From UHGV virus genome UHGV-0088365: 16,601 nucleotides of DNA. One strand, given 5' to 3'. Under the pieces are notes generated by a model, which saw only the letters and a list, made by a program, of their open reading frames with translations, had not been told where the DNA came from and did no database searches. Positions 8,858-11,563 of the stretch are shown here, in pieces; the first letter of the stretch is position 1, and every line of letters starts with the position of its first letter. Made by a program: the position numbers and the translations under genes. The DNA is from a virus.

Positions 8858-8866
8858 ACCACACAT

Positions 8867-8900
8867 AGCCTAGTAGTTTATGCTGGGCTTTCATTTTTTT
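8867..8900 (+). terminator. Intrinsic terminator after the SWIM-protein gene
   Basis: Stem AGCCTAG / CTGGGCT (7 bp with one G-U pair), 9-nt loop, followed by TTCATTTTTTT. The stop of the convergent minus-strand gene (8891) lies inside the T-run. Confidence 0.5.
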
Positions 8901-9619
8901 GAAAGATCAATTCCAGTATTATCAAACAAACTGGAAATATCAGACACCAATTTATTAAAATGCTTGTCATCATTATAGAATGATGTGCTTTTTATAGCGA
9001 CTATAAAATCACATAAATCTTGCGGAGATTCAATGCTAACCCCCTTATTTTTATATAGTTCAATAATACTGCCAACATCAGTATGCAATAGTTTTATCGC
9101 GCCACAAATTTCTCGCTGTTTCGTAACCAAGTCATTAAGTTTATTTTCATTTTCATCTAAGATTTGTTTTGAATATTTAGCGTCATTGGTTGCTTGATTT
9201 AACTTTGTTTTCTTTCTTTGCAATTCTATTCTTTTATCATAATCAGCAACTTCATCTAAATATCTTATTTCAGTGTATAATTTACTTGTTAGCTTAGATA
9301 TCTTCAGTGTGAGAACAGGAGCTAACACAGATGCAAATACTCCATAAATAAATGGGATTACAACGTGATAAACCCACGGGGATACAATCCAATTATCAAT
9401 GAACGGGACATTACCACCAACAGAAACAATAGATAATGTATATAGGATGTCGTCCTTTGACTTTAATATAATTAAAATATCCTTCCAGTTAAAAATTAGA
9501 AAAGAAATGACAACATATGCAAAAACCTTGTTAAATATTTTATCTTTTATTATTTCAGAAAATGATTTTAGTTCTGTTTCATTTATAGACGGATTATCTT
9601 TAACTTTTTCTGACATCAT
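8891..9619 (-). CDS. AT-rich membrane protein (two predicted TM helices) with coiled-coil-rich C-terminal domain, 242 aa; candidate abortive-infection or exclusion-type effector
   Basis: ORF-track ORF; ATGATG start at 9619 with AGGA 7 nt upstream. Predicted TM segments FAYVVISFLIFNW and WVYHVVIPFIYGVFASVLAPVLTL; K/E/N-rich helical C-terminus. Markedly AT-rich. No family recognised. Confidence 0.75.
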   Translation of the reverse strand: MMSEKVKDNPSINETELKSFSEIIKDKIFNKVFAYVVISFLIFNWKDILIILKSKDDILYTLSIVSVGGNVPFIDNWIVSPWVYHVVIPFIYGVFASVLAPVLTLKISKLTSKLYTEIRYLDEVADYDKRIELQRKKTKLNQATNDAKYSKQILDENENKLNDLVTKQREICGAIKLLHTDVGSIIELYKNKGVSIESPQDLCDFIVAIKSTSFYNDDKHFNKLVSDISSLFDNTGIDLSKK

Positions 9620-9640
9620 AGCTTATCCTGATTACTTTTA

Positions 9641-9841
9641 TTATGGATAGTTAAAAGATTCAACAGGTGATGGTGGTTGAATTGGGTAATGTTTCTTCTC
9701 GTACTCCTCAATGAGAAGACTCATAACCTCAAAGAAATCACCTTCCGGAGTATTCATTTCCGGTTCGTTATCGAACATCGGTTCGACCGCACGCAGTGCG
9801 GCCTCATAATCTTGTTCTGTACGGATAGGTTTAATGTTCAT
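9641..9841 (-). CDS. Small protein resembling only the N-terminal (non-HTH) domain of YgjM/HigA-type antitoxins, 66 aa
   Basis: ORF-track ORF; MNIKPIRTEQDYEAALRAVEPMFDNEPEMNTPEGDFFEVMSLLIEEYEKKHYPI follows the pattern of the N-terminal domain of E. coli K-12 HigA (...NEEQYTQALELVDHLL.NDPENPLLDLV...ITAWEE...) as I recall it, but there is no HTH domain. No Shine-Dalgarno sequence is evident. Confidence 0.5.
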   Translation of the reverse strand: MNIKPIRTEQDYEAALRAVEPMFDNEPEMNTPEGDFFEVMSLLIEEYEKKHYPIQPPSPVESFNYP

Positions 9842-9854
9842 TAATTACAAAGGA

Positions 9855-9885
9855 AAGCCCACTTGCTAAGTGGGCTTTTTGTATG
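9855..9885. terminator. Hairpin AAAGCCCACTT-gct-AAGTGGGCTTT followed by TTGTATGTGTTTT; terminator, strongest in the plus orientation
   Basis: Perfect 11-bp stem with 3-nt loop between the higA stop (9898) and the 66-aa ORF start (9841). The T-run is on the plus strand; the minus orientation has only TTTCCTTT. Confidence 0.5.
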
Positions 9886-9897
9886 TGTTTTACTATA

Positions 9898-10236
9898 TCA
9901 GGCTGCTTTTTTATTCAGGTTCCGCTGAGAAATAAATTTTTCAGCAGTATTGATACGACTTAACTCTTCCTGAACGCGCATATCATTTTCGACTTCCCAC
10001 AGATCTACTGCGGTCTGAAGATTAATCCAAAAATCTACAGAAGTATCGAATGCTTTTGCCAGGCGATATGCCATATCCATCGTTAGCTTACGATTGTTAT
10101 TAACAAGAGCACTTACGGTGTTACGATGAACATGAAGTATTTCTGCTAACTCGTTGATCTTCAGCTCTAACGGCTCCAGGTATTCGTACAGCAGGATATC
10201 ACCTACGGTCGTCGGTTTTCTGGTTGCCTGTTTCAT
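9898..10236 (-). CDS. higA: HigA-family antitoxin (XRE-type HTH), 112 aa
   Basis: ORF-track ORF; PTTVGDILLYEYLEPLELKINELAEILHVHRNTVSALVNNNRKLTMDMAYRLAKAFDTSVDFWINLQTAVDLW matches the HigA/VapI HTH antitoxin pattern; it lies downstream of a HigB-like toxin gene (toxin-first order typical of higBA). Confidence 0.8.
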   Translation of the reverse strand: MKQATRKPTTVGDILLYEYLEPLELKINELAEILHVHRNTVSALVNNNRKLTMDMAYRLAKAFDTSVDFWINLQTAVDLWEVENDMRVQEELSRINTAEKFISQRNLNKKAA

Positions 10237-10306
10237 TTTTTGCCCTTACTAGCGTGCGTATTAAGTGGACTCTGGTCAGAACCCGGTCCGTAACCGGGTA
10301 TCTGTT

Positions 10307-10609
10307 TTAGTATTTGTGAGGGTCGAGATACAAGTCCTCGGCCTTTCCGTTAACCCACTTAAAAATTAACCTATATTGCTTATTCACCCTTACTGATGAA
10401 TAGCCATTTAGCTTCCCTGACAGTTCCTCATACCGATTACCTGGTGGTGATCTTAAATCCTTACAGGTAGTTGCGGCATTGATAATGTCCAACTTCCGTG
10501 ACAATGTCATATGAATATCAGGAGGTATCTTTCTATGTGGTGTTGAAAATTCAAAAAAATCATCAAGCCACGCATCCCTGAAATCCTTTATGTTAATTTT
10601 TTTGGTCAT
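10307..10609 (-). CDS. higB: HigB-like toxin (plasmid-maintenance killer protein, RelE/ParE superfamily), 100 aa
   Basis: ORF-track ORF; C-terminal half GNRYEELSGKLNGYSSVRVNKQYRLIFKWVNGKAEDLYLDPHKY follows the HigB pattern (...G.R.G.YS.RVN..YRL.F...NG.A..L...DYH) as I recall it; upstream GGAGGA. Confidence 0.8.
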   Translation of the reverse strand: MTKKINIKDFRDAWLDDFFEFSTPHRKIPPDIHMTLSRKLDIINAATTCKDLRSPPGNRYEELSGKLNGYSSVRVNKQYRLIFKWVNGKAEDLYLDPHKY

Positions 10610-10654
10610 TAGTCATTTGATCCTCCGTGATGATTACCGAATGCCATAACTATA

Positions 10655-10682
10655 GCGCACCGTTGCACTGTGCGCAAGTGCA
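10655..10682. promoter_or_regulatory. Nested palindromes (GCGCAC...GTGCGC and TGCACT-N7-AGTGCA) in the divergent promoter region between higB and the rightward operon; putative operator
   Basis: Read directly in GCGCACCGTTGCACTGTGCGCAAGTGCA; toxin-antitoxin promoters are typically autoregulated through palindromic operators. Confidence 0.4.
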
Positions 10683-10771
10683 TTTTATGAATTCCCCCTC
10701 CTTCATCCAAAATCACAATCTCCAGAAAATCTTCCTTTCGATACCTGACAGATCGACCTTTGAGGATGCTT

Positions 10772-11563
10772 ATGGGCCGTTTTGACGAATGGTTTGCTGA
10801 CGATGCAAACCTGGCAAGTAAGGAGTCAGAACATGACAGCACGCAGAGAGAAACGCCAGCGCCGATTGAAGCGAATGCAGGAGGCGCGCCGGAACATGGC
10901 AATACCGGTTCGGATTCATTCAGCATTCTGGAAGAGCAACCCGCCGCCCAAGCTGATAGCCATGATAATTTTGCTGATAGCAACGGTGGCCTTACTCCGG
11001 ATGCTGGCGAATCAGATATAGCCATACTTCCATCTTCCCTGGCTGGCAGAGAACCGACTCCACAGTTAAAAGCACGCTATAACGGGCATAAAGCCTTTAA
11101 CGACCAAATCCGCGCAGACTGGATGCTGATTATTGAATCCAGCCCAGACGCGTTTCAGGCTCTCTTATATCGACCAGATGTTGGCACATATGGGGTAGTC
11201 AGCGACGAAACAGGAGAAGAGTCATTCACTGAACTGGATAACAACCAACGCGAACTGACTTACCAGGAACCTGAAATCGTTTATGTGCTGGATAACCCTG
11301 ACGGGCGTGACTCTTTCCATGCGATTGACGCAGACGGTGAGCAGGATGGCTTAACCGATGATGTTCTGATTCTGCGTATTGCAGCAAATAACGTCCCCGT
11401 CGGCTCAATTCTTGAATGGAATGAAGAGATGGTAAACGGCGTAGCGCGCCGCTGGTGGTACGTGCACCGTATTTTTAGCTACGGCACACAGCATGTTGGT
11501 TCGCTTTACTACTGCATACCTGCCAGGAATTTTGATACGACTCAAAACGGAGTGATCGAATGA
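10772..11563 (+). CDS. Hypothetical protein with acidic, low-complexity N-terminal half, 263 aa
   Basis: ORF-track ORF 10760..11563 trimmed to the ATG at 10772 (GAGGA 5 nt upstream); ATGA overlap with the next gene. No family recognised. Confidence 0.7.
   Translation: MGRFDEWFADDANLASKESEHDSTQRETPAPIEANAGGAPEHGNTGSDSFSILEEQPAAQADSHDNFADSNGGLTPDAGESDIAILPSSLAGREPTPQLKARYNGHKAFNDQIRADWMLIIESSPDAFQALLYRPDVGTYGVVSDETGEESFTELDNNQRELTYQEPEIVYVLDNPDGRDSFHAIDADGEQDGLTDDVLILRIAANNVPVGSILEWNEEMVNGVARRWWYVHRIFSYGTQHVGSLYYCIPARNFDTTQNGVIE

Follow-up and report, generated by a model that had tools for sequence, protein, structure and literature searches.

The virus genome UHGV-0088365 was analysed over a stretch of 16,601 nucleotides (nt), referred to here as the window, and contains at positions 9898-10609 a two-gene locus which is very probably a working type II toxin-antitoxin operon. 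Judged from its sequence and from a structural model of the toxin, the locus belongs to the HigB/HigA family and within this to the GraT / HigB-1-YbaQ subfamily, and it is carried as cargo by a D6-like phage-plasmid of the P1 family. The toxin gene (10307-10609) precedes the antitoxin gene (9898-10236) on the minus strand, with a single promoter region upstream and a single terminator downstream of the pair, and both this order and the family assignment agree with an earlier note that had been made from the DNA letters. The module is already known: both genes carry annotations in phage D6 and RefSeq, and the literature lists the pair among the killing systems of D6-like plasmid prophages. The D6 gene products are listed as 'toxin of TA system' (orf70) and 'plasmid antitoxin with HTH domain' (orf71), the RefSeq names are RelE/ParE family toxin (WP_000162415.1) and HigA family antitoxin (WP_000806445.1), and published papers describe D6-like plasmids with phd-doc and higA-higB killing systems, in which post-segregational killing by the module is assigned from annotation only. 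Nothing is new in the module itself, which is an ordinary finding apart from minor new leads on its regulation; these bear on how toxin-first operons restrain their toxin and on the persistence of phage-plasmids, which sometimes carry resistance genes.

Toxin and antitoxin proteins

The toxin HigB is a protein of 100 amino acids (aa) that matches the PF05015 HigB-like_toxin profile over its full length (120.5 bits with a cut-off of 27, E 4e-35, profile positions 1-91 of 91) and the PHROG family phrog_3066, 'toxin of TA system' (E 4e-37). The nearest solved toxin by sequence is GraT of Pseudomonas putida (6f8s, E 3e-14). An AlphaFold model built on 27 relatives (predicted local distance difference test, pLDDT, 92.4) was compared with the PDB using Foldseek, which returned HigB of Proteus vulgaris as the top match (template modelling score, TM, 0.82-0.88; root mean square deviation 1.5-1.7 Å) and GraT as the next, and the toxin is predicted on this model to have the RelE/HigB microbial RNase fold. 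Residues R74, R80, H98 and Y100 are invariant across the 27 relatives in the family alignment; D96 and H98 align with D90 and H92 of P. vulgaris HigB with a Pro replacing Tyr91, and an equivalent of its His54 was not seen for the window toxin in the same alignment. These residues of the Rts1 HigB are presumably catalytic. The toxin C-terminus is ...NKQYRLIFKWVNGKAEDLYLDPHKY, as the earlier note had quoted it, and the chromosomes and prophages of Enterobacterales often encode homologues of it.

The antitoxin HigA scores 102.5 bits against the TIGR02607 antidote_HigA profile (cut-off 47.7) and 42.4 bits against HTH_3, matches the PHROG entry 'plasmid antitoxin with HTH domain' and is approximately 80% identical to YbaQ of Escherichia coli K-12 (PDB 2eby, E 1e-53), which bears out its description as an XRE-type helix-turn-helix (HTH) antitoxin. 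Both profile searches proposed in the earlier note, against PF05015 and HTH_3, thus gave matches, and the 100 aa protein has a significant hit to HigB/RelE-fold toxins, so that the HigB/HigA interpretation stands.

The spacer between toxin and antitoxin genes

Between the two genes lies a spacer of exactly 70 nt (10237-10306), because HigA cannot start earlier and thereby shorten it, owing to an in-frame TAA 12 nt upstream of the ATG of higA. The distance of about 70 nt had been recognised in the earlier note, but its view that such a separation is unusual does not hold. In a comparison with 106 distinct related modules, composed of 65 with a YbaQ-like antitoxin (the enterobacterial clade) and 41 more distant ones, the genes overlap in none (0/106); the module of pSa1423-160k (L089) was excluded from the comparisons on account of its many frameshifts in the region. 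The distant modules from Vibrio, Marinobacter, Idiomarina and others have gaps of 5-19 nt, mostly 10 or 14, plus two outliers bearing large palindromic insertions, and those of the clade range from 10 to 254 nt with a median of approximately 60-70. Separated genes are therefore the norm of the family and a 70 nt spacer is ordinary for the enterobacterial clade. Since higA has its own Shine-Dalgarno sequence (SD), which is independent of higB, the conserved arrangement suggests that the spacer may uncouple translation of higA from that of higB. An internal promoter for higA is not apparent: the sole minus-strand hit of a consensus promoter scan (10482-10510) lies inside higB and was rejected, its conservation being uninformative because its -10 element overlaps the invariant LDIINAA codons, and the scan found no convincing promoter within the spacer itself.

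The junction of the enterobacterial HigB-1/YbaQ clade is hypervariable and often structured. Clade spacers are mostly non-homologous to one another and carry GC hairpins, tandem octamer repeats or large perfect palindromes, or are short and unstructured, and the non-repeat spacers have a mean folding z score of -1.14 with 10 of 38 below -2. In Pectobacterium genomes and IMG/VR prophage contigs (L018, L020, L021, L047, L107-L112) the octamer CCCGTAGA is repeated in the spacer in 3 to about 30 copies, and the copy number varies among near-identical modules exactly at the toxin-antitoxin junction; one of these spacers (L108) carries a different 8-mer repeat, ACTTAACT, together with a hairpin. Two Marinobacter modules (L060, L066) contain near-perfect palindromic insertions of 124 and 178 nt (-64 and -96 kcal/mol) which resemble MITE-like elements (miniature inverted-repeat transposable elements), in a lineage that otherwise has spacers of 14 nt.

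Structure and conservation of the spacer hairpin

The spacer contains a GC-rich hairpin located 30 nt upstream of the higA SD. The earlier note had described this hairpin correctly (ACCCGG-N7-CCGGGT), but the 10268-10290 given there is about 10 nt too far to the left, the core lying at 10281-10299. Folding of the RNA, which the note had also suggested, gives -20.8 kcal/mol for the 86 nt junction (z = -2.39), and only 3 of 200 shuffled sequences fold as well. An Rfam scan of positions 9500-10900 at a permissive E-value returned nothing at the hairpin, only sub-threshold chance hits at the terminator, and a second helix predicted in the spacer, which would sequester the SD, was discarded as it is not conserved in the Salmonella variant.

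Nine distinct spacers were compared, namely those of the window, of six D6-like variants and of two members of a Salmonella P1-like lineage. The CCCGG/CCGGG core is unchanged in all nine, and the outer pair changes from A-U to G-C in the Salmonella lineage and an inner pair from U-A to C-G in one variant. Changes are concentrated in the loop, which has been rewritten among the variants (TTACGGA, CGGATGGA, CGGATGAA and TGAACT). Window and Salmonella lineage have a third-codon identity of 0.49-0.51 and match at 11/24 and 17/38 of their 4-fold degenerate sites (~45%), so that synonymous sites are nearly saturated between the very lineages in which the core stem has kept all 10 bases and the outer pair shows a compensated change. 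The similarity of the whole spacer between the two beats 993 of 1000 shuffles, and the signal resides within the hairpin part. Because the stem has been kept while 4-fold sites are only ~45% identical, the hairpin is probably under selection, as far as the sequences can tell.

Possible roles of the hairpin

The reading favoured here, which is held tentatively, is that the hairpin is an RNA element by which the ratio of higB to higA expression is set, through weak internal termination of a non-canonical kind or through an effect on processing or stability. Such a role fits the location of the hairpin between the cistrons and the provision of higA with its own SD, and it has an experimental precedent in the HicA(T)B operon discussed below. 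Several observations weigh against it. The sense strand has no canonical U tract (UUCUGACC in the window and UACUGACC in L083) and a terminator scan of the hairpin on this strand was negative, the tail after the stem being UUCUG in the window, UACUG in L083 and CCGUUU in the Salmonella variant; termination may therefore be negligible. Many clade members have unstructured spacers of 10-35 nt, including the experimentally supported E. coli higB-1/ybaQ with 35 nt, so that the hairpin is not required for toxin-antitoxin function. The covariation is thin, since two pairs are double-changed and five invariant, and 40 of 500 shuffles reach the score. Lastly, quasi-palindromes may yield changes that look compensatory through template switching.

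A reading which is unlikely, though plausible in view of the variable clade spacers, and which has the better standing of two alternatives is that spacer and hairpin are without function. The junction would be a permissive site which tolerates insertions because higA has its own ribosome-binding site (RBS), and which gathers hairpins, palindromes resembling MITEs or repetitive extragenic palindromic (REP) elements, and tandem repeats, with the stem being kept by descent and quasi-palindrome correction. The non-homologous clade spacers, spanning 10-254 nt with 3 to ~30 octamer copies or large perfect palindromes, are what such a site would produce, as are the variable loop and the modules that manage with short unstructured spacers, the functional E. 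coli higB-1/ybaQ among them. Beyond the hairpin, moreover, the Salmonella spacer resembles that of the window no better than shuffled sequence does (655 of 1000 shuffles are as good). The stem itself does not behave in this way: to retain 10 core bases and a compensated outer pair at ~45% 4-fold identity would be roughly a 1-in-1000 event under neutrality, and stable structure is enriched in the non-repeat spacers of the clade, as the z scores given above indicate.

The other alternative, which is improbable, places the function of the hairpin on the opposite strand, as an intrinsic terminator that stops plus-strand antisense transcripts from higA or beyond before they reach higB, or as the 3' boundary of a cis-antisense RNA that spans the higA RBS. 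The consensus scan does call a plus-strand terminator at the hairpin (the stem followed by ATCTGTTTTA), every lineage has an A-rich run before the hairpin on the sense strand that yields a U-rich tail on the antisense strand, and in the Salmonella variant the result is a textbook antisense terminator (GCCCGGAGTTCACCGGGC-TTTTATTTTAG). However, the T-rich tail is largely the reverse complement of conserved Lys-Tyr-stop codons (AAATACTAA). Of 47 distinct clade spacers, 18 have a terminator-like hairpin on the antisense strand and 1 has one on the sense strand, but this asymmetry is expected anyway because sense-strand terminators are also selected against. A plus-strand promoter-like site inside higA (10100-10127) could supply the transcript, but it was dropped as a candidate, since the Salmonella lineage retains the hairpin and yet has lost this site through synonymous changes, and two terminators (8867-8889 and 9852-9880) already stop plus-strand transcripts of the tail operon. 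It would also make little sense for a terminator between the genes to shield from interference the toxin gene rather than the antitoxin gene.

Predicted operator and promoter, and the toxin start

The nested palindromes which the earlier note had seen upstream of the toxin gene at 10655-10682 are real and occupy 10657-10681. They consist of four half-sites in the layout GCAC-N4-GCAC-N-GTGC-N4-GTGC, which is far beyond chance, and 57 of 65 distinct clade modules, with unrelated flanks, carry this four-half-site motif no more than 130 nt upstream of the toxin, as against none of the 41 distant ones. A TAnnnT hexamer follows 2 nt after the last GTGC in nearly all clade members (TATAGT in the window) and provides the -10 element of a putative sigma-70 promoter. 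This higBA promoter is only inferred, because the consensus scan was too stringent to report it, and the half-sites are accordingly described as a predicted HigA/YbaQ operator overlapping it. The motif is retained in the Salmonella P1-like lineage despite wholly different flanks and hence is part of the toxin-antitoxin module, not of the adjacent tail gene. At the other end of the operon a bidirectional intrinsic terminator is predicted to end higBA transcription and to insulate the operon from plus-strand transcription.

The strong SD upstream of higB is closer to an out-of-frame ATG, which opens a mini open reading frame (mini-ORF) of seven codons, than to the ATG of the toxin (Table 1). Among 59 clade modules, 29 have an out-of-frame ATG at a distance of 5 or 7 nt upstream of the toxin start codon, as do 5 of 41 distant ones; nearly all relatives with at least 72% identity have it, despite differing sequences. 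Its conservation suggests that the mini-ORF over the toxin start is likely a ribosome decoy which would limit translation of the toxin in a toxin-first operon. The higB leader varies in length by repetition in a relative, Escherichia albertii NBRC 107761 (L004), where five copies of the heptamer AATGACC stand ~35 nt upstream of the toxin gene, whose ATG is at 2001; through this array the distance between SD and toxin start grows by 21 nt and several short out-of-frame ORFs arise. The leader of the window has two imperfect copies of the heptamer.

Role of the module

By analogy with the family and with published work on the chromosomal homologue of E. coli, HigA, alone or together with HigB, would bind the operator and repress the operon, and would neutralise HigB, which is expected to act as a ribosome-dependent mRNA endonuclease. 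Upon loss of the low-copy plasmid prophage HigB would outlast HigA and arrest the cell, in an addiction mechanism working alongside phd-doc. The GC hairpin, as a probably selected RNA element, may in addition tune the higB:higA ratio, and the mini-ORF may hold toxin translation down, both on the strength of conservation. The earlier note had offered stabilisation of the element or phage exclusion as possible roles, each by inference; the most parsimonious of these is the addiction of a low-copy plasmid prophage, which is also what the literature assumes, although for the module of the window it is extrapolated that HigB is toxic, that HigA neutralises it and binds the operator, and that the plasmid is stabilised.

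A point against addiction is that nearly all E. coli carry a chromosomal ybaQ whose product is ~80% identical to the HigA of the window, and which might repress or neutralise the plasmid module and thereby blunt its effect. Of 5426 complete genomes of E. coli, 4854 contain ybaQ and 643 have toxin and ybaQ together (in the ybaP-copA interval; L131, L132). Most E. coli have thus lost the toxin, and in K-12 both toxin and operator are gone and ybaQ is an orphan. As this orphan YbaQ is ~80% identical to the phage-plasmid antitoxin, cross-repression or anti-addiction is possible, and a host orphan ybaQ with a shared operator could interfere with plasmid addiction. A broader proposal, which is speculative and should be regarded as doubtful, combines these leads: the phage-plasmid higBA would be subject to a layered post-transcriptional control undescribed for HigBA, composed of a ratio-skewing hairpin, as in the HicA(T)B operon discussed below, and a mini-ORF capturing ribosomes at the toxin start, with orphan ybaQ serving as an anti-addiction gene against D6-like phage-plasmids and the hypervariable spacer as a tuning knob of the conflict.

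That the main role is instead anti-phage defence, by abortive infection or exclusion of competing phages, is improbable. The module does resemble a moron in being a low-GC, antisense insertion in a late operon beside other cargo; a different toxin-antitoxin pair occupies the same slot in sibling plasmids, a turnover typical of defence hotspots; and D6-like elements already have phd-doc for addiction. PADLOC, however, gives no hit for the toxin and only weak generic helix-turn-helix hits for the antitoxin, and no experimental report of defence was found. The orphan antitoxin beside the pair does look like the N-terminal domain of PD-Lambda-2_B, but the match spans only 119 of 402 profile positions and concerns a decayed neighbour gene, not the higBA pair. 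In the PADLOC search only D6 orf72 matched the PD-Lambda-2 system, which comprises a full-length PD-Lambda-2_B with its partners A and C, and neither the toxin, orf73 nor the antitoxin had a hit to any of its components.

Carrier element and cargo slot

The window is, by its sequence, a D6-like phage-plasmid of the P1 family: it is 95.9% identical to Escherichia phage D6 over 95% of its length, and the region of the module is 100% identical to E. coli plasmids of ~90 kb. All matches in the 5426 complete E. coli genomes are on plasmids (100/100, with 0 chromosomal), and 116 of 118 PLSDB hits are non-mobilizable plasmids, from Escherichia, Salmonella and Shigella, in which D6-like plasmid prophages are common. 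The description of the module as phage cargo in the earlier note is borne out by its position. The late operon of P1 (26-25-7-24-6-5) is continuous, with genes 25 and 7 separated by 3 nt; in the window and in D6 a cassette of ~1.9 kb, containing orf73, orf72, higA and higB, lies antisense between the homologues of these two tail genes.

This slot appears, from the sequences that fill it, to be a site of toxin-antitoxin turnover. In the sibling D6-like plasmid NZ_CP069886 it is occupied by a PF09907 HigB toxin and a 119 aa HTH antitoxin 3 nt downstream, and orf73 is absent. This cassette is complete in 24 plasmids, and most others retain an antitoxin fragment only. The intact 119 aa orf72 of D6 (L001 12298-12657) is 98% identical to the antitoxin of the PF09907-type pair and is thus an orphan left over from a displaced pair; in the lineage of the window it is decaying, a deletion of ~200 bp having cut it to 66 aa. 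The remnant belongs to the cargo cassette and is outside the active module. According to its profile match (E 4e-43, positions 1-119 of 402 of the PADLOC PD-Lambda-2_B profile) D6 orf72 and a component of a validated anti-phage system have an antitoxin-like N-terminal domain in common, and the remainder of that component is missing from orf72. The product of orf73 has hydrophobic N-terminal segments and a polar C-terminal half, with no match in Pfam, NCBIfam or PADLOC.

Owing to the terminator that follows gene 25, the downstream genes 7-24-6-5 need a new promoter in the interval 10610-10771, of which ~65 nt (10707-10771) are common to the window and a sibling plasmid carrying a different cassette. 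No P1-type late promoter is recognisable in this interval. Positions 10610-10618 (minus strand), in the higB leader, are identical to the 9 nt -22 box AAATGACTA of the P1 late promoters LP26/LPpmgL and were considered as a late promoter, which was rejected as no -10 element follows on either strand; a search of the window for the box followed by N4 and TAnnnT gave one hit versus 1.65 expected, and the identity is probably due to chance.

Table 1. Positions of the module, its regulatory elements and its neighbours, in window coordinates unless another sequence is named
Feature	Position	Strand	Remarks
higB toxin gene	10307-10609	minus	100 aa; PF05015, GraT-HigB subfamily of RelE-fold mRNA interferases
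higA antitoxin/repressor gene	9898-10236	minus	112 aa; XRE-HTH, YbaQ-type; TIGR02607, HTH_3
Toxin-antitoxin spacer	10237-10306	minus	70 nt
GC-rich hairpin, extended stem	10277-10304	minus	outer CAGA/UCUG extension, preceded by A-rich run
Hairpin core	10281-10299		plus-strand ACCCGG-tccgtaa-CCGGGT; sense loop TTACGGA
higA Shine-Dalgarno AAGGG	10243-10247	minus	independent of higB; 6 nt before higA ATG
Operator, four GCAC/GTGC half-sites	10657-10681	minus	GCACTTGCGCAC-A-GTGCAACGGTGC; nested palindromes, predicted HigA/YbaQ-type repressor site
Putative sigma-70 promoter of higBA	10649-10677	minus	-35 TTGCGC 10672-10677, 17 nt spacer, -10 TATAGT 10649-10654; overlapped by operator
Shine-Dalgarno GGAGGA (strong)	10621-10626	minus	4 nt to out-of-frame ATG at 10616, 11 nt to toxin ATG at 10609
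Out-of-frame mini-ORF	10593-10616	minus	7 codons, MTNDQKN*; overlaps toxin start, ends within toxin codons 6-7
Bidirectional intrinsic terminator	9854-9878	both	11-13 bp stem, T runs on both strands
Whole cassette interval	8858-10771		orf73, orf72 remnant, higA, higB
Plus-strand terminator 3' of gene 25	8867-8889	plus	
Truncated HTH antitoxin remnant	9641-9841	minus	66 aa; from 119 aa D6 orf72; pseudogene in RefSeq
orf73, function unassigned	8891-9619	minus	242 aa; phrog_8191; ~30% GC; last gene of inserted cassette
PF09907-type pair in sibling D6-like plasmid	L133 3655-4320		

Comparison with known systems

The closest counterpart of the module is the orf70/orf71 pair of phage D6 (WP_000162415.1/WP_000806445.1), which consists of the same genes with 100% protein identity, has the same 70 nt spacer and lies in the same slot between genes 25 and 7; the difference is in the neighbouring orf72, which is intact in D6 (119 aa) and reduced to 66 aa in the window. 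The higB-1/ybaQ pair of E. coli (phylogroups B2 and F) belongs to the same clade, its toxin being ~78-80% and its antitoxin ~80% identical to those of the window, and is likewise toxin-first, with the four-half-site operator and -10 arrangement and, in relatives, the out-of-frame ATG before the toxin. It differs in being chromosomal (ybaP-copA) and in having a 35 nt spacer without a GC hairpin. The ybaQ gene was found to be essential only in strains with the upstream toxin higB-1, and a YbaQ binding motif is present in the higB-1 promoter, where knockdown of ybaQ strongly derepresses higB-1 (Rousset et al., 10.1101/2020.05.25.114553). These data are the best functional evidence for the family, not for this exact module.

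Two better characterised relatives are more distant. GraT/GraA of P. putida (6f8s) has a toxin that is ~40% identical over the core and a HigA-type HTH antitoxin, but is chromosomal and much more divergent, and was compared by its proteins only. The HigB/HigA system of the P. vulgaris plasmid Rts1 (4mct, 4ypb) is the prototype of the family and shares the fold, the toxin-first order and a role in plasmid addiction, but its toxin is only ~26% identical to that of the window and its operator sequence is different.

For the spacer hairpin the nearest parallel comes from another toxin-antitoxin family. In HicA(T)B of IncI2 plasmids the hicA-hicB spacer contains a GC hairpin followed by three U which results in about 10-fold more toxin mRNA, lowers translation of the antitoxin, raises the toxin:antitoxin ratio and strengthens both addiction and plasmid competition (Lin et al., NAR 2025, PMC11878559). 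The HicA and HicB proteins are unrelated to HigB and HigA, and the spacer is 24 bp with UUU after the hairpin as opposed to 70 nt and UUCUG in the window; nonetheless both are toxin-first plasmid operons with a GC-rich spacer hairpin just upstream of the RBS of the antitoxin gene, and HicA(T)B offers an analogy for the way in which the hairpin of the window may work.

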